Source of the DNA: an uncultured Acidimicrobiia bacterium
Lineage (GTDB): Bacteria; Actinomycetota; Acidimicrobiia; IMCC26256; PALSA-555
Assembly (NCBI GenBank): GCA_963809885.1
Contig: CAWELA010000004.1
Coordinates: 61,019-125,018 of the forward strand
Direction: 5' to 3'
DNA: 64,000 nt
In this document: piece after piece, positions 134 to 61,432 of the stretch
Layout: each line of letters begins with the position of its first letter
Numbering within the stretch: the stretch's first letter is position 1
Made by a program: the position numbers and the translations under genes
The notes under the pieces: generated by a model
What the model saw: only the letters and a program-made list of their open reading frames with translations
Database searches by the model: none
Told to the model about the DNA's origin: nothing

Positions 134-3100
134 GCGCCGTCGGCGCCGTGGAGGCGGCGCCGCGCGGCCTCCGTCCGGAACCGCTCGACCCCCAGGAGCT
201 TGACGTTCTCGTAGCCGCGGACAAGGTCCGGAAGCGACGCGACCTCAACCGCGCCGTCGTAGTTCTGGAACGTGAGGGCGCTGAGCGTGGCCTCGACGAG
301 GTCGCGGTACTCCCGGATGAGTGAGCGCTCGGTGCGGCGGATCTTCGTGTACCCGAAGAGGTCCAGCGGGGTGCCACGCACGTGTCGCATCGCACGGAGC
401 GCGACGAAGGCGGGGCGGAACCAACGACCGAGCGCGAGCTTCTGCTTCATCCCGAGCGCTCGGAGCGCCGGCGGATGCAGCCGGTACCGGACCTTTCCGC
501 CATCGGGAAACTGCGCCCGCAACGCAGCCGTGAACTCGGGTCGCAGTGAGAGGCGAGCCACCTCGTACTCGTCCTTGTACGCCATGAGCTTGAACAGGTA
601 GCGGGCCACCGCGGTCGAGAGCTCGCAGCGCGCCGGGAGGACGGCGCGCTCCGCCGCGAGGACGCGCTCGACGAAGCCGAGGTACTCGCGAGCGAGGCGA
701 GGACCCTGGTACTCGACGAGCTCGGGCACGCGGACCTCGAGGAGCCGGCGGACGGGTGTCGGGAAGGTCGTCGGGGAGCGCCGCGAGGATCTCGGCGCCG
801 GACGCGCGCCCTGGTCGCGACGCTCGGCGCGGTGTCCCGATCTCGACCGGAGTCGGCGTCTCGGTGCCGAGACCCGCCGCGCCGAGAGTGCCCGCCGGGT
901 CGAGGACGAACCGCCGGCCCCAGCGGAACGCTTGCTGGTTCCGCTCCACCGCCACGCCGTTGAGCTCGAGGGCCCGCTCGATGGAGCCCGCGCTCAGGGG
1001 GAGTGCGCCCACTTGGAAGGCGATGCCGAGCAGCAGCGGGTTCGCCATCAGGTGATCAGCGAAGAGCCCCGTCCCGAGCGCCTCGGCGTCGGCGTGCGCG
1101 TCGATGGCCCCACCGTGGAAGGCCACGGTCTCGAGCAGCCCGTCGACCGCGGGGAAGCTCACGCTCGTGTCCCGCACCATCGCGCCGGTGGGCACCTTGC
1201 TCGTCGAGACGACCACACGCGTGCCGTTGCGCATCGCGCCGACGTTCCGCGGGTCGGCGGCGACGAGGAGATCGAATCCGAGGTAGGCGTCGGCCTCGCG
1301 GGAGCCGATCGCGTTGGACGAAGCGATCGGCTCGCGACGCGAGCTTCACATGGGAGACGACCGGGCCTCCCTTCTGGCTCAGTCCGGTCTGGTCGAGGCC
1401 GCTGACATGAAGGCCATCGAGGAGCGCGGCCGTCGCGAGCACCTGGCTGATCGTGACGACGCCCGTGCCGCCCACGCCGGTGAGGTAGATCGTGTAGCCA
1501 TCGCCGATCGCCGGGCGCACCGGGTCCTCGATCTCGGTCGCGGTGATGAGCGGGAGGTTGCGAGCTCCCGGACCCGACGATCCGACGACGGCCTGGGCTC
1601 GCCGAGCGTCCGCTCGACGACGTGATCGGCGTGTCTCGTGGACGGTCACGAACGATGGGCAGTCACCCTCGAGGCAGGTGAAGTCGAGGTTGCAGGACGA
1701 TTGATGGATGCGCGTCTTGCGTCCGAGCTCCGTCTCGATCGGCTGCACCGAGAGGCAGTTGCTCTTCGCGCCGCAGTCGCCGCAGCCCTCGCACACCCAT
1801 TCGTTGATGAAGACGCGCTGGGTGGGGGTCGGGGATCGACCGCGCTTGCGGAGGCGTCGGCGCTCCGCCGCGCATGCCTGGTCGTAGACCAGGACGGTGA
1901 CGCCCTCGACGTCGCGCAGTTCCCGCTGTGCTTCGTCGAGGCGATCACGCGGCCAGACGGTGACGTTCGGCGCCCATCGCGCCCGGGACGGGTACCCCTT
2001 CGGGTCCTCGGAGCAGACGATCGTCCGGCGCACACCCTCGGCTTCGAGCAGGCGCGTGAGGTCGGGAACCGACATGGCGCCGGGTGCATCCTGGCCGCCG
2101 GTCATCGCGACCGTGCCGTTGTAGAGGAGCTTGAACGTGATGTTCACTCCCGCGCTCACACACGCCCGGATGGCCATGCTCCCCGAGTGGAAGAACGTGC
2201 CGTCGCCCAGGTTCTGGAACATGTGCCGGCGATCGGTGAACGGTGCTCGTCCGATCCACTCGGCGCCCTCGCCGCCCATCTGGGTCATGGCGACCGCGCT
2301 GCGGCCCATCATCGCGGCCATGGTGTGACACCCGATCCCTCCACCGGCGACCGAACCGTCGGGCACGTTCGTCGAGCGATTGTGCGGGCATCCGCTGCAG
2401 AAATAGGGCGCGCGAGTGACGTTCGGGACGGGGGTCGGACGATCGCGGCGTCCGATGGGACGATCGCTGATCTCGGCCCCCGATCCGGGTCGAGCACCTT
2501 CGAAGGCGGGCCCGAGCCACGACGCGAGGGCGGGCAGGATCCGGTCCGGCGTCAGCTCGCCGTCCGCGGGGACGAGGGTGAGACCCTCGGCGTCCTGCTT
2601 GCCGAGCACGCGCGGGCGGGACGCGGCGTCGTAGAGGATGTCGCGCAGCTGGCTCTCCACGAAGGCGCGCTTCTCCTCGACCACGAGGATCTCGTGGAGA
2701 CCATCGGCGAAGCTACGCACGATGGTCGGCTCGACGGGCCAGATCATCCCGAGGTGCAGGATCCGGATCCCCGAGCGCTCGAGGGCTTCGTCGTCGAGCC
2801 CGGAGGCCGCCAAGGCATGACGGACGTCGTAGTAGGTCTTCCCGGCTGCGACGATGCCGCGCCGGGCGGACCGAGCCCGATCGCCCGCGATCTGATCGAT
2901 GCCGTTGACGCGTGCGTACGCGCGCGCGGCCTCGGTGCGCCCGGAGAGCAGCTCGCGTTCGTCGCCGAGGTTGCGGGGCGGCAGCGCGAGCCCGCCCTGG
3001 GCGTACGACCAGGGTCGGCCTTCGATCGCGACCTCGGGCAGCACCGGTGCGTGGCGCTCGGGGGAGACCGTGGCGGTCCCGAAGCCGTCGGCGACGTTGG

Positions 3101-3716
3101 TGACGATCTTCATCCCGATCCACAGCCCCGAGGCGCGCGACATCGCGATCGCGTGTTGCCCGAGGTCGAGGATCTCCTGCACGTTGCCGGGGAACAGCAC
3201 CGGGATGTTCGCGGCGGCGAGCGCGCCTTCGCTCGCGGACGGGATCGTCGACGATTTCGACGATGGGTCGTCGCCTGCGAGCACCACGACCCCGCCGCGT
3301 GGGTGGGTACCCATCAGGTTGCCGTGGCGGAACACGTCCCCGCAGCGATCCACACCCGGTGCCTTGCCGTACCAGATCGACACGATCCCGTCGTGCTCGG
3401 CCAGCTCACCCAGTGCGTCCTGCTGGGCTCCCCAGGCCGCCGTCGCCGCGAGCTCCTCGTTGACACCCGGCGTGAACCGCACGTCGTGCTCGTCCAGGAG
3501 TGGGGCCTCGCGTTGGAGGGCCAGGTCGTAGGTGCCGAGCGGTGATCCCTGGTACCCGGAGATGAAGGTCCCGGTGCGGTGGCCGGCGCGCCGATCGATT
3601 CGATGTCGATCGATCGGGAGGCGGACGAGCGCCTGGATCCCCGAGAGGAGGATCGTCCCGCGCTGGTTGCGGTAGCGATCGCCGAGCGTGAACTCGGTGG
3701 TGCGCGTCGTGGTCAC
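124..3716 (-). pseudogene. indolepyruvate/arylpyruvate:ferredoxin oxidoreductase family protein (fused IorA-IorB type), frame broken twice as assembled
   Basis: Three minus-strand ORF pieces read as one protein. ORF 1056..3716 is the N-terminal TPP/PFOR-like part (MTTTRTTEFTLGDRYRNQRGTILLSGIQALVRLP..., Cys cluster CEGCGDCGAKSNC, ...GLDQTGLSQKGGPVVSHVKLA). ORF 245..1234 is the middle (SNAIGSREADAYLGFDLLVAADPRNVGAMRNGTRVVVSTSKVPTGAMV...). ORF 124..729 is the C-terminus (RRLLEVRVPELVEYQGPRLAREYLGFVERV...). Frame changes lie at about 1340 and about 780. The total is about 1197 codons. Confidence 0.85.
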
Positions 3717-3744
3717 GCCAGGCCGTCGCGCTCGCCGCGTGCGA

Positions 3745-4137
3745 TCAGGCGATCGCCGCCTCGGCGATCGCCTGATCCTGGGAGTAGTGGCCGCCGCTCA
3801 CGCCGATGCCGCCGATGGGCCCCGCAGCTCCCATGATGGGAAGACCTCCCGGCAGTGCTGCCACCTGCGCCTCGCCGCTGAACGCGAACGCCAGCACCTG
3901 GTCGCCCTGGGCCATCTCCACGATCATGTGGGTCGGCGCGCCCATCGCCGCGGAGAACGTCGCCTTCTTCTTGGCCACGTCGATCATCAGGAAGCTCGCG
4001 CCGTCCATGCGAGCCGATGCCACCACGTGTCCGCCGCCGTCGACGACGACCACGGCGATGGGAAGGTCCTGGGCTTGCGCCGCCTCGACGGCCTTGCGAA
4101 CGAGCCCCTGGGCGGTGGTGAGGTCGACGTTGCTCAC
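3745..4137 (-). CDS. GlcG/HbpS-like (DUF336) putative heme-binding protein
   Basis: ORF-track 130 aa: MSNVDLTTAQGLVRKAVEAAQAQDLPIAVVVVDGGGHVVASARMDGA...LPGGLPIMGAAGPIGGIGVSGGHYSQDQAIAEAAIA, the typical GlcG pattern. It ends 28 nt upstream of the IOR start on the same strand. Confidence 0.8.
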   Translation of the reverse strand: MSNVDLTTAQGLVRKAVEAAQAQDLPIAVVVVDGGGHVVASARMDGASFLMIDVAKKKATFSAAMGAPTHMIVEMAQGDQVLAFAFSGEAQVAALPGGLPIMGAAGPIGGIGVSGGHYSQDQAIAEAAIA

Positions 4138-4192
4138 GTGATGTGCCTCCGCGATGATCGGACGCCCGGTGGCTCACCGGGCGATGACGTCC

Positions 4193-4204
4193 TACAATAT
4201 CGTC
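4193..4204 (+). promoter_or_regulatory. AT-rich 12-mer TACAATATCGTC (candidate -10 TACAAT plus conserved downstream box) upstream of the Rieske oxygenase gene
   Basis: An identical 12-mer recurs at 7088..7099 in the next divergent intergenic region. It lies 63 nt upstream of ATG 4267. TACAAT fits the TAnnnT -10 pattern. Confidence 0.35.
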
Positions 4205-4266
4205 TGGCAAAGCCGCCGCCAGTCGCTCGGACCGATCGGTGGCCAGGACCGTACGAGGGAGCCGCG

Positions 4267-5271
4267 ATGACCGCCACCGAGAACCCGACGCAGCGCCGCG
4301 GTCGTGAGTTCGAGCCGCAAGGCCCCGAGGGGTACTACGAGGGCTGGTACCCCGTGTGCCTCGCCGAGGAGCTCGACGGCGAGCGGCTCGTCGGAGCCGA
4401 CTTCCTCAATGGCCGGATCGTCGCCCTCCGGTCCGCGGACAACACGCCCATCGTGATGAGCGCGTACTGCCGCCACCTCGGGGCTGACCTCTCGATCGGC
4501 GATGTCGTCGACGGCTGCATCCGGTGCGCGTTCCACCACTGGAAGTACGCGACCAACGGTCGCGTCGTCGAAGTGCCGGTCGACGAGCCCATCCCCGACG
4601 AGGCGCAGCTGTACGTGTTCCCCTCGGCGGAGGAGTTCGGGATCGTCTGGGCGTACAACGGTTCGGGGGAGCCCACCGAGTTCCCGCGGTTCCACGGGTT
4701 CGAGACCGAAGACCTCTACTTCAAGGCGGCGCCGCGCGAGGCGTTCCGCGAGTACCCCGTCGAGCCGTGGGTCCTGCTCACGAACTCGTGCGACATCCAG
4801 CACCTCCGCGCGCTGCACGGGCTCGAGATCGACGTCGATCCCGACGCGATCGAGATCACCGAGCACACCATCGACTACGACGCCCACATCGTCGACCCGA
4901 ATCTCGGCGAGATGGATCAGCACATCACGACCTTCGGGACGAACACCATCATGCTCACCGGCCAGATGGGTGGGATGGATGTGCTCATGGGGTCGTCGGC
5001 CGTCCCCCTTCCCAAGGGTTGGGCACGAAACTTCCAGTTCGCTGCCACCCCGAGGCGCACCGGCAGCGACGAGGAGCGCGAGCAGGCCGAGATCGCGATG
5101 TCGATGGCGCTCGCCTTCGGCGAGCAGCTGCTGAAGGACGACGATCGTGTGATGGCGAACATCCACTTCCGGGAGGACCTGCTGCTCCCGGCCGACCGCG
5201 CGCTCACCCGCTTCCTGCGCTACGTCCGGGGCTTCCCGCGGGCGAACCCGGCGCGCGACTTCCTGGTCTAG
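4267..5271 (+). CDS. Rieske [2Fe-2S] non-heme-iron oxygenase, alpha-subunit-like (KshA/phthalate-family size)
   Basis: ATG 4267 lies inside ORF 3688..5271; the upstream part is an Arg-rich shadow of the opposite-strand gene. Rieske ligands are CRHLGADLS...CAFHHWKY. The mononuclear-iron motif D-x2-H-x4-H is DIQHLRALH. 334 aa. Confidence 0.85.
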   Translation: MTATENPTQRRGREFEPQGPEGYYEGWYPVCLAEELDGERLVGADFLNGRIVALRSADNTPIVMSAYCRHLGADLSIGDVVDGCIRCAFHHWKYATNGRVVEVPVDEPIPDEAQLYVFPSAEEFGIVWAYNGSGEPTEFPRFHGFETEDLYFKAAPREAFREYPVEPWVLLTNSCDIQHLRALHGLEIDVDPDAIEITEHTIDYDAHIVDPNLGEMDQHITTFGTNTIMLTGQMGGMDVLMGSSAVPLPKGWARNFQFAATPRRTGSDEEREQAEIAMSMALAFGEQLLKDDDRVMANIHFREDLLLPADRALTRFLRYVRGFPRANPARDFLV

Positions 5272-5283
5272 GCGAGCTCGGTC

Positions 5284-6142
5284 TCAGGTGAGGTCAGGCA
5301 GACCGATCGCGAAGACGACCGTCGGCTCGACCGCTTCGAGGATCTCATCGTCGCCGGGATCGAACTTGAACGCGCTGCGGCTCCCGTAGAGCCCGGCCGA
5401 GGCCCGGAGCGTCCCGTCGACCACGAAGTGGAGCTCGGGCGCGCGGAGACCGAGGCACGCGGTGGGTGGCTCCTGCGTCATAGCGCGTGAAGCCGATGCT
5501 CGTCCGGCGCTCGCTGAACGTCCCCAGGTGCCGGTGACTGATGCCGGGCTCCGGGTTCCCGGAGCCGTCTCGGGCGCTCACCCACGCGAACGAGTCCGGG
5601 CGCATGGTGATCGGGGTCTCGTAGCGCGGCGCCGGGTACTCGACCGGCCGACCGTTGATCTCCTCCCAGATGGCCTCGTAGCCGTCCTTGTTGCGCTGCT
5701 TGCCGTCGTCGTCGACGTAGCGCCAGGTCCCGTCGTCGAACGAACCGTGCGAGCTCTCGGCGAGCCGCTTGCTGCCCTCGGCGAGCCGGTCGTAGCTCAT
5801 GAAGCCGGACGTGCTGGCCTCTCCGTACTGGAGGGTCAGCACGAGCGAACCGTGCCCCTGTTGCGGACCGTAGAACGTTCCTTCCGGCGAGTACGTCACC
5901 GTCCCTTCCGGCATCGACACCGACGGTGACCACTCGTGCAGGCCTTCGAGCACGTAGTGGATCTGGGAGAAGTTGTGATGGTGGCGCGGTGTCGTGTACT
6001 CCTCGCCGAAGTGCACGATGCTCCACTCGAAGTTCCCGGCCGAGTCCGGATCACCTCGCAACAGCCGTTGGAACTTGATGCCGCTCCCGCGATGGTCGGA
6101 GAAGCAGTGCGGATCGGCGTCGATGGCTCGGATGGTCTGCAT
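5284..6142 (-). pseudogene. cupin-domain (bicupin-like) protein, paralog B, one frame break as assembled
   Basis: MQTIRAIDADPHCFSDHRGSGIKFQRLL...TPRHHHNFSQIHYVLEG...IGFTRYDAGATH is read in the frame of ORF 5345..7645. The protein then continues in ORF 5284..5481 (ACLGLRAPELHFVVDGTLRASAGLYGSRSAFKFDPGDDEILEAVEPTVVFAIGLPDLT*). The break is at about 5461, an extra C in CACCCACC. Confidence 0.7.
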
Positions 6143-8400: not shown

Positions 8401-9348
8401 ATGACCACCCGCAACCTCGACCCCGAGCTCGTGACCATCCTCGACGCGATCGAGGGTGGTGGCATGTTCGACGACGGCGTGACGTTCGACCAGATGCGCG
8501 AGCGCTTCGAGGCGACGGCACCGTTGATGTGGGACGCGGCGGCGCTCGACGTGCACTCCGTCGAGGACCGGGTACTCGACGGTCCCGGTGGCGACCTACC
8601 AGTGCGCATCTACCGGCCGACCGCCACGTCGGATCCGATGCCGGTGCTCGTCTACTTCCACGGGGGCGGCTTCACCATCGGCAGCATCCAGACGGCGGAC
8701 CCGATGAGCCGATTCCTGGCTCGCGAGGCGTCGTGCATCGTGGTGAGCGTCGGCTTCCGCCTCGCGCCCGAGCACCCGTTCCCCGCCCCGCTCGACGACT
8801 GTTGGGCCGCGCTCCAATGGGTCGCGGCGAACGCGGAGACGTTCGGGGGAGACCCGGCGCGCCTCGCGGTCGGTGGTGACGCGTCCGGCGGCACCTACGC
8901 CGCGGTGTGCGCGCTCCTCGCCGGTGACCGCGGTGGCCCGGCGCTCCGCCTCCAGCTGCTGCTGAGCCCGTCCACCGAGTTTGCGGACAAGTACCCCTCC
9001 CGGGTCGAGTTCGCCGACGACCGTCTCATCCCCGGCGACATGGTGGATCGCCTCATGGATGCCTACGCGCCCGAGGGCGTCGACCGCACGGACTGGCGAC
9101 TGTCGCCCGTTCGCCATCCCGACCCTTCGGGGGTGGCTCCGGCATACGTCCTCGCCAGCGAGTACGACTTCCTGCGCGACGAGGAGCGGGCGTACGCCGA
9201 GCGGCTGGAAGCGGCCGGCGTGGCGGTCACCTTCGAGTGCTGGTCGGGCACGGTCCACAACTTCTTCTCGATGTACGACCACCTCGCCGTCGCGCGCCGC
9301 GCGATGGGTGAGGCCGCGAAAGCGCTGCGCACCGCTTTGCACGGGTGA
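8401..9348 (+). CDS. alpha/beta hydrolase, hormone-sensitive-lipase (HSL) type esterase, copy 1
   Basis: ORF-track 315 aa. Oxyanion motif VYFHGGGFTIG, DYRLAPEH-like FRLAPEHPFP, nucleophile region LAVGGDASGG, C-terminal ...GTVHNF. SD-like GAGAGGGGAG precedes the ATG. Confidence 0.85.
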   Translation: MTTRNLDPELVTILDAIEGGGMFDDGVTFDQMRERFEATAPLMWDAAALDVHSVEDRVLDGPGGDLPVRIYRPTATSDPMPVLVYFHGGGFTIGSIQTADPMSRFLAREASCIVVSVGFRLAPEHPFPAPLDDCWAALQWVAANAETFGGDPARLAVGGDASGGTYAAVCALLAGDRGGPALRLQLLLSPSTEFADKYPSRVEFADDRLIPGDMVDRLMDAYAPEGVDRTDWRLSPVRHPDPSGVAPAYVLASEYDFLRDEERAYAERLEAAGVAVTFECWSGTVHNFFSMYDHLAVARRAMGEAAKALRTALHG

Positions 9349-9351
9349 GCG

Positions 9352-10032
9352 TCAGGGCAAGGCGGACTGCTCCGCGGTTCGCATGCTGAGCTCGCCGCTG
9401 CGCTTGACGTGCACGCGCATCGCACGCTCGGCGGCCTTGGCATTGCCTGCGAGGATCGCCGCGGCGACCGCCGCGTGATCCTCGATCGAGTTCGGCATCG
9501 CCGAATCCTCGACGATCATGCGGCGGAACAGCAGGCGGAACGCGTGCACCTGGAGCTGAGGGATCAACCGGGCGAGGAGTCGGCTCCCGCTGAGCTCGAC
9601 GACGAGCTCGTGGAAGCGCTCGTTCTCGTCCATGTACGCCATCGTGTCGCTGCGCCCACGGAACTCGTCGATGATGCCGATCTCGCGTTCGAGTCGGGCC
9701 CGGTTGTCGTCCTCGTCGATGCGCAGGGCGGCCAGGCGCGCCGCCTCACCCTCGAGCAGCTCTCGGATGTTGAACAGGTCCCGGACGTCCTCACGCCCCA
9801 GTCGCCGCACGACCGCACCGCGGTAGGGCTCCAGCTCGAGCACGCCCTCGGCAGCGAGCCGACCCATCGCCTCCCGCAGCGGTCCGCGGCTGATCCCGAG
9901 CTCGGCCGTGAGGTCCGCTTCGACCAGCCGCTGACCGGGTGCGTAGCGACCATCCTTCACGCCCTCGATGATCGCTTCGATCACCGACTCGACCGCCGTC
10001 TGTCGGGGTCCCTGGGCTGCCGCAGTCGTCAT
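9352..10032 (-). CDS. GntR-family transcriptional regulator (FadR/FCD C-terminal domain type)
   Basis: ORF-track 226 aa. The winged-HTH is ...GRYAPGQRLVEADLTAELGISRGPLREAMGRLAAEGVLELEPYRGAVVRRL, followed by a helical FCD-like domain. Confidence 0.9.
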   Translation of the reverse strand: MTTAAAQGPRQTAVESVIEAIIEGVKDGRYAPGQRLVEADLTAELGISRGPLREAMGRLAAEGVLELEPYRGAVVRRLGREDVRDLFNIRELLEGEAARLAALRIDEDDNRARLEREIGIIDEFRGRSDTMAYMDENERFHELVVELSGSRLLARLIPQLQVHAFRLLFRRMIVEDSAMPNSIEDHAAVAAAILAGNAKAAERAMRVHVKRSGELSMRTAEQSALP

Positions 10033-53642: not shown

Positions 53643-54464
53643 ATGGACGTCGTGACCCTGGGCACCGGTTCGCCGATCCCGGACCCGAACCGCGCCGGAG
53701 CCGCGACCCTCGTCCGCGCCGGCGGCACCACGCTGCTCTTCGACTGTGGTCGGGGCACGGTCATCCGCCTCGCTGCGGCCGGTGTGTTCCCGCCCATGCT
53801 CGACCACCTCTTCCTCACTCACCTGCACAGCGACCACATCACCGACTTCAACGACGTCCTCACGACGCGCTGGGTCATGTCGCCGGTCGAGAACTCCCTG
53901 CCAGTCACCGGTCCGCCGGGCACCGAGCGCTTCGTGGCGCGCACCCTCGCGATGCTCGAGGACGACATCGGCTATCGGCTCGATCACCACGCCGATCTCA
54001 ACTGGAACCCATCGTGCACGACCACGGAGGTGGCCGACGGGCTCGCGTGGGAGACCGACGCCGTGCGCGTGACCGCGGCACCGACGGATCACCGGCCCGT
54101 CCATCCGACCGTCGGCTACCGGGTCGAGGCCGAGGGGAAGGTCGCCGCGATCGCGGGGGACACCGTGCCCTGCGCCGGGCTCGACGTGCTCTGCGCCGGC
54201 GCCGACGTGTACGTGCAGACCGTGCTCCGACCCGACCTGGTGCGGCACGTGCCGAGTCCGCGGTTCCAGGACATCCTCGACTACCACTCGTCGTGCGAGG
54301 ATGCCGGCAAGACAGCGGCGCGCGCGGGGGTGCGCACCCTGGTGCTCACCCACCAGGTCCCACCGCCCGCGCCAGGCAGCGACGACGAGTGGATCGCGCA
54401 GGCCGCCGAGCACTTCGACGGCGAGATCGTGTTCGCCCACGACCTGCGCTCGGTCACGTCGTAG
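53643..54464 (+). CDS. MBL-fold metallo-hydrolase (RNase Z/ElaC-like)
   Basis: ATG 53643 lies inside ORF 53388..54464: MDVVTLGTGSPIPDPNRAGAATLV...LFLTHLHSDHITDF (HxHxDH)...VLVLTHQVPPP.... Confidence 0.8.
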   Translation: MDVVTLGTGSPIPDPNRAGAATLVRAGGTTLLFDCGRGTVIRLAAAGVFPPMLDHLFLTHLHSDHITDFNDVLTTRWVMSPVENSLPVTGPPGTERFVARTLAMLEDDIGYRLDHHADLNWNPSCTTTEVADGLAWETDAVRVTAAPTDHRPVHPTVGYRVEAEGKVAAIAGDTVPCAGLDVLCAGADVYVQTVLRPDLVRHVPSPRFQDILDYHSSCEDAGKTAARAGVRTLVLTHQVPPPAPGSDDEWIAQAAEHFDGEIVFAHDLRSVTS

Positions 54465-55155
54465 CGGAGCCACTCCCCGCCGGCGCCTGCACCTCGAGCA
54501 GCTTCCGTTCGGGGAGCAGCAGGACGGCGGCGATCAGGAAGCCGAGCGCGCCGACGAACGTCCCGAGGTTCATCAACGTGACGCTGCGCACCTGATCGGA
54601 CTCGGGCACGACCTTCGACGCCACCGCAGAAACCCCGAACGCGATCGACCCGACCAGGTTGAGGCCTGCGATCCGCCAGGCCAACGCCCGGGGCTGCCAC
54701 GTCCACCACCGGCGGGCGACGCAGTACCAGGCGATCGAGCTCGCAACGAGGAAGCAGATCGACCCGTACACGTCGGGCCGCCACACCAGGTCGTTGACCG
54801 CGTCGGCGGACAGGCTCTGCTCCAGCGCGTGGAACGTGCTCGCGTTGAAGAACAGCGTGCCGGCGAGCTGCACGGTCGCGGCGACCCACTCCGGACGGCG
54901 CGGATGCCACGAGACCGCGCGGCCGTCACCGCTCTCCCGGTACTGCAGGTAGCCGGCGGTGGTGAAGAAGAGGGAACCGACGAAGAAGGTGACGCCATCG
55001 GCGTGGTCGCCGACCGCTTCGACGTAGCCCGGAAGGGCGCCGATCGCGAAGCAGGTCGCACCGATCGCGAACAGGACCCCCATCCACCAGTCGAGCGCGC
55101 GCGGCGCCCACCAGGTGGAGTCGCTCGAGTGCCGCCAGTGCGGGTGCGGGCTCAC
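54454..55155 (-). CDS. hypothetical integral membrane protein (about 6 TM segments)
   Basis: ORF-track 233 aa. It has alternating hydrophobic helices (WWMGVLFAIGATCFAIGAL, VTFFVGSLFFTTAGYL, WVAATVQLAGTLFF, YGSICFLVASSIAWYCV, IAGLNLVGSIAFGVSAV, LGTFVGALGFLIAAVLLL). It is the last gene of the sigma-factor operon. Confidence 0.5.
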   Translation of the reverse strand: MSPHPHWRHSSDSTWWAPRALDWWMGVLFAIGATCFAIGALPGYVEAVGDHADGVTFFVGSLFFTTAGYLQYRESGDGRAVSWHPRRPEWVAATVQLAGTLFFNASTFHALEQSLSADAVNDLVWRPDVYGSICFLVASSIAWYCVARRWWTWQPRALAWRIAGLNLVGSIAFGVSAVASKVVPESDQVRSVTLMNLGTFVGALGFLIAAVLLLPERKLLEVQAPAGSGSATT

Positions 55156-55176
55156 CGGGTGCTCGTCACGAACGCG

Positions 55177-57616
55177 CTAGAGGTAGCCGTCGTCGAGCAG
55201 GTTCTTCGTCGCCCACCACCCGGGGACCGCCGGGATGAAGTTCGCGACGAGCTGGTCCGTCAGGACGGCCGCGACGGCGACGTCGGTCGGGACGCCGGCG
55301 GCGGTCAGCGCACCCGAGAGACCGACGGCCGACACCGCGGTGTTGCCGCCGGGGATCGGCACGAGCGACGCGATCGTCGACACGAAGATGTTGATCGCGA
55401 GCAGCGTCCAGAAGTTGATGGACCCCCCGAAGGCTTCGATGCACGCGAGGAGCACGAACGCGTACATCGAGCGCGTTGATCGCGTTGCCGATCAGGAGCA
55501 GGAACAGCTGGCGCGGGGATCGGATCGCGGTCCAGATCGTCGTCCACGCGCTCTTCAACGGGCCGACGACCATGGTGCGGATCTTCGGCACCAGCAGGAT
55601 CACCGCGACCACGAGGACGATCACGAGCGTGGCGATGAGGACGATCGACTCGATGCTGCTCACCGGGATCTTGCCGGTCTTGATCGAGGTGGGCGACAGC
55701 GCGATCGCAATGATGAACATCACGATCTGCACGAAGATGTTGCCGGCGTTCATGAGGATGCCACCGGACGCGACCGCGGACGCGAGGTCGGCACCCTGCT
55801 TCTGCAGGTAGCGGATCTGGGCCGCGAGCCCACCGATCGCCGGAACCGCGAGGTTCGAGAACGACATGGAGAGCTGCAGCTCCGACGTCCGCCAGAGGGG
55901 GAGGCGCACCGGCACCGTCCCCATGAGCGCGATGGCCGTGGCGATGTTCGTGGCGAACGACACCAGCATGGCGACGATCAGCCAACCGAGGTCCGCGCTC
56001 GTGACGGTGTCCCACAGCTCCTGCGGATCCCCGACCTGGCTGAGCAGCGCACTGATGGCGATCAGGGTGCCGACCGCCATCATCAGGTTCGTGCCGCTGA
56101 CCCGGTACAGCTGCTGGAGCTGCGGGGTCTCGGTGCCGGTCGCCGCCGCCGTCGCGTCGCGGAGGTCCGCGAGCGCCTGGTTCGCTTCCTTGCGGTCGTG
56201 GCGCTTCGCCGCGTGGAGGTCGGAGCTCAGTGCTGCCGGCTGCAGGTAGCCGATCGCGTGGACGACCGCGTCCGTGCCGACGCCCGCGATCGCCGCCTTG
56301 ATGGCCCTGTCGGCACCCACGATGGTCGCCGTGCTCGCGAGCAGCTCGGCGACGTCGTTGCTCAATCGACCGGCCGGTGCCGCGCCCGCGGCAGTGTCGA
56401 AGTCGACGATCGCCGGTCCCTTGCTCGTCAGCAGGATGTGATGCGCGTTGAGCCGACCGTGCACGACGTGGGCCGTCTGCATCGCCTTGACCTGGGTCCA
56501 GAGCTGCTTGAGCAGCGTGGCGGTGACTGCCTTCGGTTCGGCGTCGGCGAGCAGGACACCGTCGAGAGGTCGTTCGACGAGGAGCGCGGCGCCCGGGCCC
56601 GCGGTGCCCGCGACGACGACGTCGGGCACGCGCACACCGGCGCGCTCCGCGAGCAGCGTCGTGTAGGCCTGATGCTCGACATCCTCGAGCCGCGTGAGGT
56701 GCAGCGCTTCTCCCGCGTCCTTGTACGCGACGTACCGCCAGGTCTTCGCCATCAGCTGCGTGTCGGCCTCGTCACGACCCAGGACGGAGACCTTGAGCGG
56801 CCCCTTGGCGTCCGCCGCGGTCATGAGCGTGCCGAACGCGGGCTGGGGGTCGGCGAGCTGCACGTCGGTCGCGTCTACCCCGAGCTCGTGGAGCGAGGCG
56901 GCGACCTGGTTGCGCGTCGGACGCCCGCCGGGCGAGCCGAACGCCAGGTGCACGGCCGCGGCGATACCCCAGCCGAGGAAGAGCGCCGCGAGGATGCCGT
57001 CGGGGAAGCCGGTCCCGAGGTACATCGCGGAGAGTGCGAGCGTGAGGAGCAGGAGGCGGCCGAGGCGGCGCATCGGGCGCGCGAGGTACGGCGACGCGGT
57101 GGAGATGACCGCCGCGATGACCGCGAGGCGCACGAGTGGGAAGCTCGCGGTGCTGTCGCCGAACCGGGTCACGACGTCGAGGCTCTTCGCGAGGCTTGCC
57201 TCGCCGACGACGAGCTCGCCGATGAGCCGACCGATGAACCACGAGAGCGCGCCGGCGATCGCGAGGTCGCGTGCGAGACGCCAACGGCGCGCCACCAGCG
57301 CAGCGATGACGATGACCGCGACGGCCCACAGTGCACCGAGCCGATAGAGCAGGGTGAAGAGCGAGTTCAGGTCGTTCGGCAGGGTGTTGAAGAAGGTGAA
57401 GAGATTCTGCTCGGCGGTGCTGAGGTCGCCTTCGTGGGCGATGAGCAGGGCGAGGGCGACGACCGCGATCGTGAGCCGGACCCAGTCGACCGTCCGTCGG
57501 CGGTAGGGCTCCTCGGACGCCGGGCCGAACGTGCCGTGGCGCCAGTGCTCGATGCGCCCGTGGAGGTCCGTGCGGCGGTGCTCGTGCTGCGTCGTCTCCT
57601 CGGTGCTCACCCGCAT
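55177..57616 (-). pseudogene. large multi-domain membrane protein: N-terminal TM region + kinase-like (probably inactive) domain + C-terminal LPG-synthase-TM/flippase-like domain; one frame break as assembled
   Basis: ATG 57616 (or GTG 57610) lies inside ORF 55166..57832. The central domain reads ...VLGRDEADTQLMAKTWRYVAYKD...HVVHGRLNAHHILL...IVDFDTAA. The C-terminal TM bundle reads ...LLLIGNAINAL and then continues in ORF 55177..55467 (MYAFVLLACIEAFGGSINFWTLLAINIFVSTIASLVPIPGGNTAVSAVGLSG...*). The break is at about 55470. Confidence 0.55.
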
Positions 57617-57704
57617 CCCTCGCCGTCGCTGCTGGGCGACACCGTACGCGACTTCGCCTCGCACGTGTCCCACGGCGAGCGGGGGAGGTAGTGCCCGACG
57701 GCCG

Positions 57705-58451
57705 CTACGCGTCGGCGAGGTCGCCGCGGGCGACGACCGGACCGGTCGGCTTCGCGCTCCCGCCGACGGGCTCGTCGGTGACGGCCATGCCCGACATCGG
57801 ACCATCGGCGTGGAAGACGCGGGCGCGGGCACCGGGGCCGAACGTGCCGAGCGGGACGGAACCGTCGTCGGAGAGGGCCCACAGCTCGTAGGTGTGGCGG
57901 TCCGAGAGCGTCGGCAGGTCGGCGGTCAGGATGCCGGTCCCACCGGGCAGCACGACGGCGGTCGCTGCGACCCTGCCATCGTCGTCGCGCAGCGGCAGCT
58001 TGGTGGCGCCGGGCGTGGTGCGGGCCGCGCGCGCCGCCGCCGCCAGCGCAGTGTCGCTCACGTTGGTGTCGTCGACAACCGCACTGCGCACCCCGCCGAC
58101 GAGTACCACGACCGCGAGCACTGCCGCGGCGATGGCCGATACGCGTGCCGTCGTGCGGGTGATCGACCGGCGCGTCGAGAGCTCGACCATGTTGCTCGAC
58201 ACGGTCTCGACTGCGGTCAGATCCTCGACGTCGAGCCGGGAGGCGATCCTGTCCCACGCCTCCTCCGGCGGCCGCTCGCTCGACTGGGCGAGCCACGACG
58301 CGCCGAGCTGCAGCGCGTGCAGCTCGGCGCGCGCGTCGGCGTCGGTGAGTACGTGCGCCTCGACCTGGCTGCGCTCGTCGGCGTCGAGCGCGTCGAGTGC
58401 GTAGGCGCCGAGGAGCTCGCGCACCTCTTCGGGGATCAGCTCATGCGCCAT
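57705..58451 (-). CDS. rskA: anti-sigma-K factor RskA-like membrane protein
   Basis: ORF-track 248 aa. The N-terminus is ...ELLGAYALDALDADERSQVEAHV..., followed by a single TM helix (VSAIAAAVLAVVVLVGGV). The C-terminal RskA-like domain reads ...TYELWALSDDGSVPLGTF...MAVTDEPVGGSAKPTGPVVARGDL. Confidence 0.75.
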   Translation of the reverse strand: MAHELIPEEVRELLGAYALDALDADERSQVEAHVLTDADARAELHALQLGASWLAQSSERPPEEAWDRIASRLDVEDLTAVETVSSNMVELSTRRSITRTTARVSAIAAAVLAVVVLVGGVRSAVVDDTNVSDTALAAAARAARTTPGATKLPLRDDDGRVAATAVVLPGGTGILTADLPTLSDRHTYELWALSDDGSVPLGTFGPGARARVFHADGPMSGMAVTDEPVGGSAKPTGPVVARGDLADA

Positions 58452-59041
58452 GACTCACCTCCGGGATCGGCCGCGCCGATGTCGACCGCGAGGAGCCGGT
58501 CGCGGAGGCGCATGAGGCCGGTGCGGATGCGCGTCTTGATCGTGCCCTCCGGTTGATCGAGGATCAGCGCGACCTCGCGATAGCTGTGCTCGCCGAAGTA
58601 CGCGAGCTCGATCGCGTCGCGCTCGCCGTCAGAGAGGGAATCGAGAGCTTCGCGGAGGTGATCGGCGAGCGCAGCGTCCCACACGGCGCGCTCGACGTCC
58701 TCGGGGTTCGGCCGGGCGAGCTTCGTGGTGCGGTCCTCGCGCCCGCGCCGCGCCGTGTCGCTGCGTACGACCTCGATCGCACGGGCGTTCGCGTCGATGA
58801 GGAGGTACGAGCGGAGCGTGCCCCGCTGGGCGTCGAACCGCTCGGGGCTGCGCCAGAGCCGGAGGAACACCTCCTGCATGATCTCCTCGGCGAGGGCACG
58901 GTCACGGAGCACCCGGCGGGCGACGCCGAAGACGGACGCGGAGTGGCGCTTGTAGGCCTCTTCGAGCGCGTCCGGCCGTCGGGCCACGATCTCCTCGGCG
59001 AGGCGGGCGTCCCCGAGCGCTCCGACCGCTTCGAGATCCAC
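58436..59041 (-). CDS. sigK: ECF (group 4) sigma-70-family RNA polymerase sigma factor, SigK-like
   Basis: GTG 59041 lies inside ORF 58436..59527. Region 2 is ...FGVARRVLRDRALAEEIMQEVFLRLWRSPERFD.... Region 4 is ...LSDGERDAIELAYFGEHSYREVALILDQPEGTIKTRIRTGLMRLR.... It overlaps the anti-sigma gene start by 16 nt. Confidence 0.85.
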   Translation of the reverse strand: MDLEAVGALGDARLAEEIVARRPDALEEAYKRHSASVFGVARRVLRDRALAEEIMQEVFLRLWRSPERFDAQRGTLRSYLLIDANARAIEVVRSDTARRGREDRTTKLARPNPEDVERAVWDAALADHLREALDSLSDGERDAIELAYFGEHSYREVALILDQPEGTIKTRIRTGLMRLRDRLLAVDIGAADPGGESWRMS

Positions 59042-59048
59042 ACCCCAT

Positions 59049-59076
59049 CTTCGCGGCGGAGGGCTTCGGTGGATGG
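59049..59076 (-). promoter_or_regulatory. candidate ECF/SigK-type autoregulatory promoter CCATCC-16 nt-GCGAAG
   Basis: The minus strand reads ...gcgCCATCCaccgaagccctccgccGCGAAGatggggGTG. The -35 is at 59071..59076 and the -10 at 59049..59054. As I recall it, the mycobacterial SigK consensus is CCATCC-N16-CCGAAT. The -10 ends 7 nt before the GTG start, so the transcript may be leaderless. Confidence 0.4.
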
Positions 59077-59105
59077 CGCTTGTCCTCGGGCCGGGCCGGC
59101 GGCCC

Positions 59106-60077
59106 TCAGGTGGTGCGGACGGCTGAGGCGACCACGTCCCAGATCTTCGCCCGGTCGACGGGCGACTCCGTGGTCCCCGGGAGGCGGTGGGTGCCGCGAG
59201 GACGGCGGTCGAGCCAGAAGCGGCCGGTGGTGCGAACCGCATCGGCCGCGACCGCGAGCCACACGATGGTGTCCGCCCCCTCGTCCGGCGAGCGGAGCCG
59301 AGGTCCGAGCACACGCTCGAACTTCGGCAGCGAGTCGTGCACACCGGGGGTCGCGGCCCAGCCCGGGTGCATCGCATGGAAGACGATCCGGCGGGCGGGG
59401 TCGCGCTGGGCCCAGAGCTCGTTGAGCACGACCTGCGCGCGCTTGGCGCGGGCGTACGCGACGCTGCCCCGGTACTCGTGCTCCGACTCGAGGTCGTCGA
59501 CGGCGAGCCGTTGGGTGTACATGCCACCAGAGGACACGGTGATCACCCGTGCGTCGCCAGTGCGCTCGAGCAATGGTCGGAGCCCTTCGGTCAGCGCGAA
59601 GGGGCCGAGCACCATGGTTGCGTACGTCATCTCGTGGCCGTCGACCGAGAGGGTGCGCTCCGCGAGCAACGCGCCCGCGTTGTGGACGAGCACGTCGAGG
59701 CGGGGTTCGCGCTCCAGCACCTCGGAGACGAGACGGCGGACGTCCGCCAGGCTCGAGAGGTCGGCGAGGTAGGTCGCGACGTCGGCGCCGGGCGCATCGG
59801 TCTCGACGGTGGCGCGAGCAACCTCGGTCTTCGCGGGATCACGGCCGACGAGCCGCACCGATGCACCCATGCGGGCGAGCTGTCGGACCGCGGCGAGGCC
59901 GAGGCCGGATGTGGCACCGGTGACGAGGATCACGCGACCGGTCGCGTCGATGGTCTCGAGGTCGTCCCAGTCGCCGAGGTGGCGCCGGACGTCGATTCCG
60001 ATGTCGGTGAAGCTCCCGACGATGGTCGCCTCGAGGGCTGCATCGGCCAGGCGTCGGAGCGGGCGGGCAAGGTCCAT
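59106..60077 (-). CDS. short-chain dehydrogenase/reductase (SDR; retinol-dehydrogenase/DHRS12-like)
   Basis: ATG 60077 lies inside ORF 59106..61274: ...RVILVTGATSGLGLAAVRQLA...LVHNAGAL...VSSGGM...YARAKRAQV.... 323 aa. Confidence 0.85.
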   Translation of the reverse strand: MDLARPLRRLADAALEATIVGSFTDIGIDVRRHLGDWDDLETIDATGRVILVTGATSGLGLAAVRQLARMGASVRLVGRDPAKTEVARATVETDAPGADVATYLADLSSLADVRRLVSEVLEREPRLDVLVHNAGALLAERTLSVDGHEMTYATMVLGPFALTEGLRPLLERTGDARVITVSSGGMYTQRLAVDDLESEHEYRGSVAYARAKRAQVVLNELWAQRDPARRIVFHAMHPGWAATPGVHDSLPKFERVLGPRLRSPDEGADTIVWLAVAADAVRTTGRFWLDRRPRGTHRLPGTTESPVDRAKIWDVVASAVRTT

Positions 60078-60128: not shown

Positions 60129-61428
60129 GTGCCGGAGCGCCTGAACCCGACCGAAGCCGCCGCGAGGGTCGGCGCCCGGGACGTGCTGGCGATCCCGCTC
60201 GGGCCGGGCCAGCCGAGCAAGTTCCTGCAGGCGCTGGGAGAGCGGGACGACTTCGAGGACCTGGTGGTCCACGGCGCGCTGCTCGTCGACCTCTACGCGG
60301 TGTTCACCCGGAAGGGCGTCCGGTTGCGCAGCGGGTTCTTCGGTCCCGCGGAACGGTTCCTGCGCGACGCCGGTCACGACGTGCAGTTCGTCCCCGCCGA
60401 CTTCCGGCGCTTCTCGCTGGTCGCGCGGCGCGTCCGGCCGCGGGTCGTGGCGACTGCGGCGAGCACGCCCGATGCCGACGGGTACCTCAGCCTCTCGCTC
60501 CACGCGGGTGCGACCGTCGACCTGATCCGCGAGGTGGGCCACGATCCCGACCGTGTGCTGATCGTGGAGGCGAACGCCCGCTTGCCGCGGACGATGGGCA
60601 TCCCGCCCGAGTACCCGAACGCGATCCACGTCGACGAGATCGACGTGCTGGTCGAGGTCGAGTCCGATCCGTTCGTGATCCCCGATGGCGACCCGACGGA
60701 TGCAGAGCGGGCGATCGCCGAACATGCGATCCAGTACGTGCACGACGGCTGCACGATCCAGACCGGCATCGGCGGGATCCCGAGCACGATCGCCAGGCTG
60801 CTGTCCGAAGGTGGCGGCGGCGACTACGGCGTCCATTCGGAGATGTTCACGACCGGGCTCATGCACCTGCACGAAGCGGGCAAGGTCACGAACCGCAAGG
60901 GCAGTCGGTTCGACGGATTCTCGGTCACCACGTTCGCGGCAGGGACGGCTGAGCTCTACGAGTGGCTCGACGGCAACGCTGACGTCCGGTTCCTCCCCGT
61001 CGACGCGGTGAACACACCCATGCTCATCGCGGAGAACCGCGACATGGTGACGATCAACGGCGCGCTGCTCGTCGACCTCGAGGGACAGGTCGCGGCCGAC
61101 TCGCTGGGCTCGCGGCAGTACTCGGGGATCGGCGGCCACGAGGACTTCGTGTCGGTCTCGGGGTTCCAGCTCGAGGACCGCGCGCTCATCTGCGTCCCGT
61201 CCGCGTCGAACGTGCAGGGACAAGCTGGTGCCGCGCATCGTCGACCGGTTCCCCGCCGGGACCGCAGTCACCACGCCGCGGCATCACGCCGACGTCGTGA
61301 TCACCGAGTTCGGCTCGGTCGAGCTCGCAGGGATGACGGTGCGCGAGCGGGCCGCCGCGCTTGTCGAGATCGCGCACCCGCAGTTCCGAGACGCCCTGCG
61401 CGAGTCCGCCGACCGCGACTTCACCTGA
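60129..61428 (+). pseudogene. acetyl-CoA hydrolase/transferase family protein (4-hydroxybutyrate CoA-transferase-like), one frame break as assembled
   Basis: ORF 60129..62453 carries the N-terminal 360 aa (...GCTIQTGIGGIPSTIA...HSEMFTTG...GSRQYSGIGGHEDF...ICVPSASNVQG). The protein continues in ORF 61228..61428 (KLVPRIVDRFPAGTAVTTPRHHADVVITEFGSVELAGMTVRERAAALVEIAHPQFRDAL...*). The break is at about 61219. Confidence 0.8.
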
Positions 61429-61432
61429 TCGT

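Follow-up and report, generated by a model that had tools for sequence, protein, structure and literature searches.

The flippases that move phospholipids and polyprenyl phosphates in bacteria are still poorly defined. In the mycobacterial MviN (MurJ)-pseudokinase Rv3910, a flippase-type membrane domain is fused to a cytoplasmic pseudokinase, which acts as a regulatory platform. That arrangement is touched on in PMC6180346. For the PplT domain, a 2022 preprint (bioRxiv 10.1101/2022.03.11.483950) lists a kinase-PplT fusion as an Actinobacteria architecture, uncharacterized, and the text searched makes no mention of PAP2 or of the loss of catalytic residues. For the extracytoplasmic function (ECF) sigma factor SigK of Mycobacterium tuberculosis and its anti-sigma factor RskA (ECF18/19-type; PDB 4NQW), a Cys133/Cys183 pair, present in 94% of ECF18 and 56% of ECF19 sigma factors, is needed for RskA-mediated activation, and an mpt83/fasciclin neighbor is part of the core SigK cassette (PMC7509140). 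The locus analyzed here recalls each of these systems. It lies in a 64-kb stretch of DNA from an uncultured Acidimicrobiia bacterium, referred to as the window, where four consecutive minus-strand genes across 54454..59077 encode an ECF sigma factor, an RskA-type anti-sigma factor, a membrane protein of ~810 amino acids (aa), called the large protein below, and a YrhK-like protein.

The comparisons described below indicate that this locus probably consists of two adjoining units of different age, a sigma/anti-sigma switch and the large membrane protein with its YrhK-like neighbor, and that the switch was inserted as a cassette upstream of the large gene in one lineage. An initial annotation had described the locus as an operon headed by a SigK-type module. 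The open reading frame (ORF) list and Pfam matches showed that the four genes are real and follow one another in the order given there. That observation was partly confirmed; it needed correction for a frameshift, and the operon itself proved to be a recent and narrow arrangement.

Age and position of the sigma cassette

The positions of the features, in window coordinates, are collected in Table 1.

Table 1. Features of the four-gene locus in the 64-kb window
Feature	Position	Strand	Basis
ECF-type promoter-like footprint GCCATCCAC-N11-GCCGCGAAGA	59048..59077	-	Alignment of four loci
ECF sigma factor, 201 aa, GTG start, cysteine-free	58436..59041	-	Pfam Sigma70_r2 and r4
RskA-type single-pass anti-sigma factor, 248 aa	57705..58451	-	Pfam, NCBIfam, hydropathy
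TACGGT, -10-like element, 30 nt upstream of the large-gene GTG (57610)	57641..57646	-	Alignment of five loci
Large protein, N-terminal part: conserved cytoplasmic FGPASEEPYRRR motif, then six-transmembrane PAP2-like domain	56912..57610	-	AlphaFold2/Foldseek, Pfam
Large protein, cytoplasmic kinase-like domain, residues 236-500	56117..56911	-	Pfam, AlphaFold2/Foldseek
Large protein, C-terminal eight-transmembrane LPG_synthase_TM domain (PplT/MprF-flippase-like), broken by a 1-nt insertion	55177..56104	-	Pfam, DNA comparison
Frameshift, extra G relative to all relatives	55468	-	DNA and ortholog comparison
YrhK-like membrane protein, 233 aa, ~6 hydrophobic segments	54454..55155	-	Pfam YrhK, 31 bits (cut-off 26.1)

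Orthologs of the large gene were taken from 80 genome loci, of which the 71 with at least 1.5 kb of upstream sequence were informative. A sigma/anti-sigma pair lay upstream on the same strand in two of these, L001 (92% identity) and L002 (84%), and was absent from the other 69; a metagenome contig, L083 (83% identity), also carries it. Locus L081 (74% identity) contains genes for AcetylCoA_hyd, SDR, the large protein, YrhK, an MBL hydrolase and YceI, with no sigma cassette, and its large gene begins 79 nt past the SDR gene. When L081 1627..5849 is compared with window positions 54454..60020, the site of insertion falls after the SDR gene and ahead of the TACGGT element of the large gene. Because L081 keeps the neighborhood and lacks the cassette, a gain of the cassette at this site within a genus-level lineage is indicated, a loss being the less simple account. 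By this comparison of loci, the four-gene arrangement is a narrow, recent juxtaposition and not a conserved module.

The large gene and yrhK adjoin in L002, L003, L081, and L083, and the pairing is gone at 67% identity or less; it is somewhat older than the pairing with the sigma genes. In L001 a DUF2254 gene (8607..9734) splits the large gene from yrhK, and a SulP-type-permease-like gene (2729..4423; called from its translation alone) lies divergently upstream of the sigma gene. The L001 copy of yrhK matches in two frames and may itself be frameshifted. No neighbor was conserved family-wide when neighborhoods were clustered with six-frame ORFs, a procedure made noisy by high-GC shadow ORFs. 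In one ortholog subclade (L005, with the gene at 4720..5898, L011, L015, L018, L021, L022, L024, L025, and L035), the gene just before the large gene, on the same strand, is an Amidohydro_2 gene that stops ~100 nt short of it.

Promoter-like elements were found ahead of both units. The footprint GCCATCCAC-N11-GCCGCGAAGA upstream of the sigma gene is conserved in the window, L001, L002, and L083, which are all four of the cassette-bearing loci. Its strict pattern occurs once in the window, where 0.3 occurrences are expected; a relaxed pattern gave 56 matches in 0.96 Mb and is too frequent to be informative. Because the footprint ends 6 nt before the sigma GTG start, it suggests an ECF promoter with autoregulation and almost no leader. 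A pattern scan of the window found no copy of this motif ahead of the large gene. The large gene is instead preceded by TACGGT, which fits the actinobacterial -10 pattern TAnnnT and does not vary among the window, L001, L002, L083, and L081. Because it is kept even in L081, which has no sigma cassette, it suggests that the large gene brought a promoter of its own.

The spacer between rskA and the large gene is 88-94 nt long, and scans of it for terminator-like sites, Rfam families, and unusually stable RNA structures were negative; a sigma-70 promoter scan of the region found nothing. Because there is no terminator between the two genes, read-through from the sigma promoter is possible. The gaps described initially as minimal are so between the sigma and anti-sigma genes, which overlap by 16 nt, and between the large gene and yrhK, which starts 21 nt past the true stop of the large gene, but not between rskA and the large gene, where the spacer also holds the conserved -10-like element.

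A second association between these gene families was seen in a Microthrixaceae-like clade (L057, L058, L060, L064, L066, and L072), whose large-gene orthologs are 48-50% identical to that of the window. There a different ECF sigma factor (37-39% identical) and an RskA_C anti-sigma factor lie immediately downstream in convergent orientation; in L064 (5383..6637, minus strand) the stop codons of the sigma pair and the large gene are 34 nt apart. Because the orientation is convergent, co-transcription is excluded in this clade. Most clades have no RskA-type pair beside the large gene.

These results bear on the possibility that the four genes form a true functional module, in which the large protein, with YrhK, is the dedicated effector or a signaling partner of the RskA-type ECF system, is expressed mainly from the sigma promoter, and serves the remodeling of envelope lipids under stress. 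Such a module would fit the shared strand without an intervening terminator, the persistence of the arrangement in four related genomes or contigs, and the ECF sigma and RskA_C genes beside the ortholog in the independent Microthrixaceae-like clade. We nevertheless consider it unlikely: the pair is missing from nearly all informative loci and from the otherwise syntenic L081, the large gene retains its own conserved -10-like element, the sigma promoter motif is not repeated ahead of it, and the pair of the second clade, being convergent, cannot be co-transcribed with it.

The sigma/anti-sigma pair in itself is ordinary. The sigma factor contains only sigma-2 and sigma-4 domains by Pfam, in agreement with its assignment as an ECF factor. 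Its top PDB match is M. tuberculosis SigK (4nqw_A, E 6.7e-23; the runner-up is at 2e-12), and its best NCBIfam match is the SigK subfamily NF007228, at 144.1 bits, below the cut-off of 226. It has no cysteine at all: SigK Cys133 aligned to Ala, and there is no Cys around position 183. The partner matched RskA_C at 60.8 bits (cut-off 29.4), zf-HC2 at 27.7 bits (cut-off 22.2), and NCBIfam NF052375 at 131.8 bits (cut-off 100); it has an N-terminal anti-sigma domain, a C-terminal RskA_C domain, and a single hydrophobic segment at residues 103-121, so its description as an RskA-like anti-sigma factor stands.

The pair thus shares with M. tuberculosis SigK/RskA a two-domain ECF sigma factor, the RskA-type domain order of the partner, overlapping genes, and an autoregulation-type promoter footprint upstream of the sigma gene. 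It differs in lacking the Cys133/Cys183 redox pair, in scoring below the SigK cut-off, and in having no mpt83/fasciclin gene in its syntenic neighborhood: none of the called genes of the syntenic L083 and L081 had a fasciclin/mpt83 Pfam match, and in the window, where the Pfam scan covered the four genes of the locus, the other neighbors were judged from their translations. The label SigK-type therefore holds for the best solved relative and the kind of partner, but not for the cysteine pair or the subfamily threshold. Judged by its sequence, the pair is best named a SigK-like, cysteine-free ECF sigma factor with an RskA-type anti-sigma factor.

A frameshift in the large gene

The large gene had been listed as one gene at 57616..55177. 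That interval is 2440 nt long, which is not a multiple of three, and joins two reading frames without remark. The window reads GCG CTC G ATG TAC where L001, L002, and L003 read GCG CTC ATG TAC, and NAL-MYAF is found at this site in 14 of 14 aligned orthologs. The uninterrupted ORF, 55166..57610, therefore ends in ~97 Arg-rich out-of-frame residues, and its 814-aa frameshifted product exactly matches the public protein P0283. Programmed frameshifting was rejected, because reading of the sequence at 'GCGCTCGATG' showed no slippery sequence.

A second frameshift was found 6 kb from the first, in an acetyl-CoA hydrolase/transferase gene (60129..61430, plus strand). The coding sequence switches near 61220 (61215..61225) from frame 3 ('...SASNVQG') to frame 1 ('KLVPRIVDRFPAGTAVTTPRHH...DRDFT*'), and the listed 774-aa ORF runs on out of frame. 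The nearest relative, L001, is a long-read metagenome-assembled genome with frame breaks of its own. Because of this second frameshift and the frame breaks of L001, the extra G at 55468 is likely a sequencing or assembly indel and less likely the mark of a true pseudogene.

The other explanation, in which the large gene has truly become a pseudogene in this organism and the cluster is decaying without functional output, appears quite improbable. In its favor, the insertion costs the protein its final 97 residues, where the PplT domain is most conserved, and lies outside any homopolymer run. The remaining ORF, however, is free of stops and 93% identical to P0001, and the frame breaks in an unrelated gene nearby and in the long-read L001 genome point to assembly indels.

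Domains and lost catalytic motifs of the large protein

With the frame repaired, the large protein consists of a PAP2-like domain with six transmembrane segments, a cytoplasmic kinase-like domain, and a PplT domain with eight transmembrane segments, in that order. Structure prediction of the N-terminal domain was needed because a profile search against PDB sequences gave only spurious matches to designed repeats. The AlphaFold2 model of residues 26-235 has six helices, with a mean confidence (pLDDT) of 72. Its top PDB match was Bacillus subtilis PgpB (5jki; Foldseek probability 1.0, TM-score 0.63), and other top matches were LpxE (6ebu being listed among the top), G6PC1, and Escherichia coli PgpB. 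The model, of moderate confidence, thus has the six-transmembrane PAP2-like fold, and hydropathy also gave six hydrophobic segments. Weak Pfam PAP2 matches occurred in 10 of 14 orthologs, with the clade of the window at 14.7 bits, below the cut-off of 27.2, and JGI pipelines name the orthologs "undecaprenyl-diphosphatase". The initial annotation was right in calling this region a transmembrane block but overlooked the degenerate PAP2 domain.

For the middle domain, the profile search bore out the kinase-like assignment. It matched Pfam Kdo at 26.4 bits (cut-off 21.3), and in a profile built from 14 sequences HGRLNxxH aligned to the HGDLxxxN of Rio2 and Bud32-type kinases. The AlphaFold2 model has a pLDDT of 86 and matched Bud32, PRPK, RIO, and PknB in Foldseek (probability 1.0, E ~1e-7). 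The predicted fold is that of a bilobal protein kinase of the Kdo/RIO/Bud32 branch. The motifs HGRLNAHH (residues 386-393, 56438..56461) and DFD (residues 405-407, 56396..56404) lie where they had been located.

The C-terminal domain had been described as a lysyl-phosphatidylglycerol (PG)-synthase-TM/flippase-like bundle, and this description was upheld. Before frame repair the Pfam match was split over two frames; after repair, residues 505-812 gave one match to PF03706 (LPG_synthase_TM) at 68.3 bits, covering profile positions 5-302 of 302, with eight hydrophobic segments. The large protein has no Pfam match to MurJ/MVIN and none to aminoacyl-PG synthase, and the PplT domain forms its end. 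It is not an MprF, because the aminoacyl-PG synthase domain is absent. The six-transmembrane call for the YrhK-like protein agreed with hydropathy (Table 1).

The catalytic residues of both enzyme-like domains are replaced. In the kinase-like domain, S277 has taken over from the beta3 Lys, R388 from the catalytic Asp, and H393 from the Mg-binding Asn, so that D405 (the DFG Asp) alone is kept. Among 276 domains of the family, only 17 have Asp at position 388, the others having R, A, S, Q, E, or another residue there; Gly is found at position 405 in 67, and R or S at position 277. In the PAP2-like domain of the window protein, motif C1 (K-x6-RP) is lost, C2 (PSGH) reads PLVR, and C3 (SR-x5-H-x3-D) reads SA-x5-G-x3-G. 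The same kinase and PAP2 losses were found in 80 of 80 genome orthologs. The middle domain thus looks like a pseudokinase, as had been proposed.

A minority of the family keeps the motifs. These proteins (e.g., P0205, P0210, P0227, and P0261, ~780-800 aa) belong to Chloroflexi/Anaerolineae and some Acidimicrobiales, the taxa being taken from the records of P0227's cluster, P0261, and P0123, and not from those of P0205 and P0210. They have the same three-part PAP2-kinase-PplT architecture. Their kinase domains contain HRDLRxxN, DFG, and VKA, and their PAP2 domains contain K-x6-RP, FPSGH, and R-x-Y-x-GAH-x-P-x-D (R-x5-H-x3-D). They scored 57-105 bits for Pfam PAP2 and 30-47 bits for Pkinase, above the 31.7 cut-off in two of the three scanned. 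Because they share the architecture and have intact motifs, they prove the PAP2 and kinase assignments of the clade that has lost them.

Of 129 PAP2-kinase units (representatives at 50% identity), 110 lack the catalytic residues in both domains, 6 are intact in both, and few are mixed, in a sample that was drawn with a profile built on members lacking the motifs and is therefore biased towards them. From these sequences the two catalytic centers look to have been lost together. The clade without the motifs is still at least 60% identical across Acidimicrobiia, and its invariant columns include FGPASEEPYRRR, GRDEAD, and FGSPGGRPT; R151 and R163 are conserved at the outer face of the PAP2 pocket. 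The family as a whole has 2430 representatives at 50% clustering (E up to 1e-3), in Acidimicrobiia and other Actinomycetota.

Some relatives carry the unit twice. P0123, P0128, P0145, and P0195 (1557-1978 aa), among the members with intact motifs, contain two tandem PAP2-kinase units, and in the upstream-unit kinase of P0128, P0145, and P0195 the DFG Asp is replaced by Gly. In L050 the large gene is followed directly by a second, diverged tandem copy (1810..3234, 36% identity), which has kept an Asp in its catalytic loop ('SHGDID').

Proposed mechanism and comparison with known systems

A mechanism can be proposed for two adjoining units of this kind. By homology with SigK/RskA, the anti-sigma factor would hold the sigma factor at the membrane until an extracytoplasmic signal frees it, and the freed sigma factor would direct transcription of the operon that encodes it, using the conserved promoter-like site just upstream of the sigma start. 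In the clade of the window, the large protein would no longer be an enzyme but a regulated translocator of, or scaffold for, a phospho-lipid or polyprenyl-phosphate. Its outward-facing PAP2 pocket, which keeps R151 and R163, may bind the phosphate head group of the lipid, and the pseudokinase would act as a cytoplasmic regulatory switch or docking surface. In addition to expression from its own promoter, the large gene may gain stress-inducible expression by read-through from that of the sigma gene.

Several observations weigh against this reading. The N-terminal model is only moderately confident, with a Foldseek E-value of 3.6e-3 at its pLDDT of 72. Were the frameshift at 55468 genuine, the large gene of this strain would be a pseudogene, leaving the module with no effector here. 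The occurrence of an RskA-type pair beside the large gene in two clades hints at an association exceeding chance expectation. Finally, H386, H393 (156 of 276 domains), D421, E314, and the GRD motif of the kinase-like domain are invariant or strongly conserved and could support atypical catalysis. The proposal that follows from the last point, that the domain is an active enzyme using residues such as H393, D405, D282, or R281 to transfer a phosphoryl or nucleotidyl group to a lipid or protein, has precedents in the kinase-fold proteins WNK and SelO, whose catalytic residues are displaced, and draws on D405 being kept in the window, but it is very doubtful, since position 388 varies freely, about one-fourth of members have Gly at position 405, either R or S stands at position 277, and loss of the kinase motifs tracks that of the PAP2 motifs. 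The joint loss agrees with a general change to a role other than that of an enzyme.

A bolder extension of the proposed mechanism is that the family is a widespread double-pseudoenzyme lipid transporter, derived from a PAP2-kinase-PplT enzyme, in which the former PAP2 domain captures outer-leaflet head groups and the pseudokinase gates transport, and which has repeatedly, in two clades and in different orientations, come to lie beside RskA-type ECF modules as their envelope-lipid effector or partner. The three-part form with intact motifs still found in Chloroflexi and some Acidimicrobiales could represent such an ancestor, but we regard the extension as speculative and rather improbable.

Our literature search found no paper on the PAP2-kinase-PplT family, on its state without catalytic motifs, or on a characterized member. 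The large protein resembles kinase-PplT fusions and the flippase domain of MprF in its C-terminal LPG_synthase_TM/PplT domain, and differs from MprF in having no aminoacyl-PG synthase domain. With Rv3910 it shares the combination of a lipid-flippase-type membrane domain and a cytoplasmic pseudokinase in one protein. However, the flippase of Rv3910 is of the MurJ/MOP type and that of the large protein of the PplT/MprF type, the domain order is reversed, and the large protein has an additional, degenerate PAP2 domain. The likeness to MviN/MurJ drawn initially is thus one of functional analogy only and does not extend to a MurJ domain. The PAP2 phosphatases (B. subtilis and E. coli PgpB, LpxE, and BcrC) have the same six-transmembrane fold, and their canonical C1-C3 motifs are present in the motif-keeping relatives, whereas all three are lost in the clade of the window.

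The protein family is of more interest than the operon. It fuses a flippase-like PplT domain to two enzyme folds, both of which have lost their catalytic residues in most members found. The motif-keeping relatives provide a natural comparison for an ancestral lipid cycle, possibly one of dephosphorylation outside, translocation, and phosphorylation inside, and for what the version without the motifs retains. Given how poorly flippases are defined, it is useful to have a candidate family that can be tested. The lineage-specific insertion of the sigma cassette is in turn a small natural experiment in regulon capture.

Two minor features were seen in upstream regions of other loci. In L058 and L060, tRNA 3'-end-like sequences ('GGTTCGATTCCCACCCGGCCCACGA') lie ~150-200 nt upstream of the large gene, occurring twice in L060. 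In L002, a threefold tandem repeat, 'CCAGTACAAGAGA', lies upstream of the sigma gene at ~4455..4495, past the preceding gene and ahead of the sigma promoter footprint.

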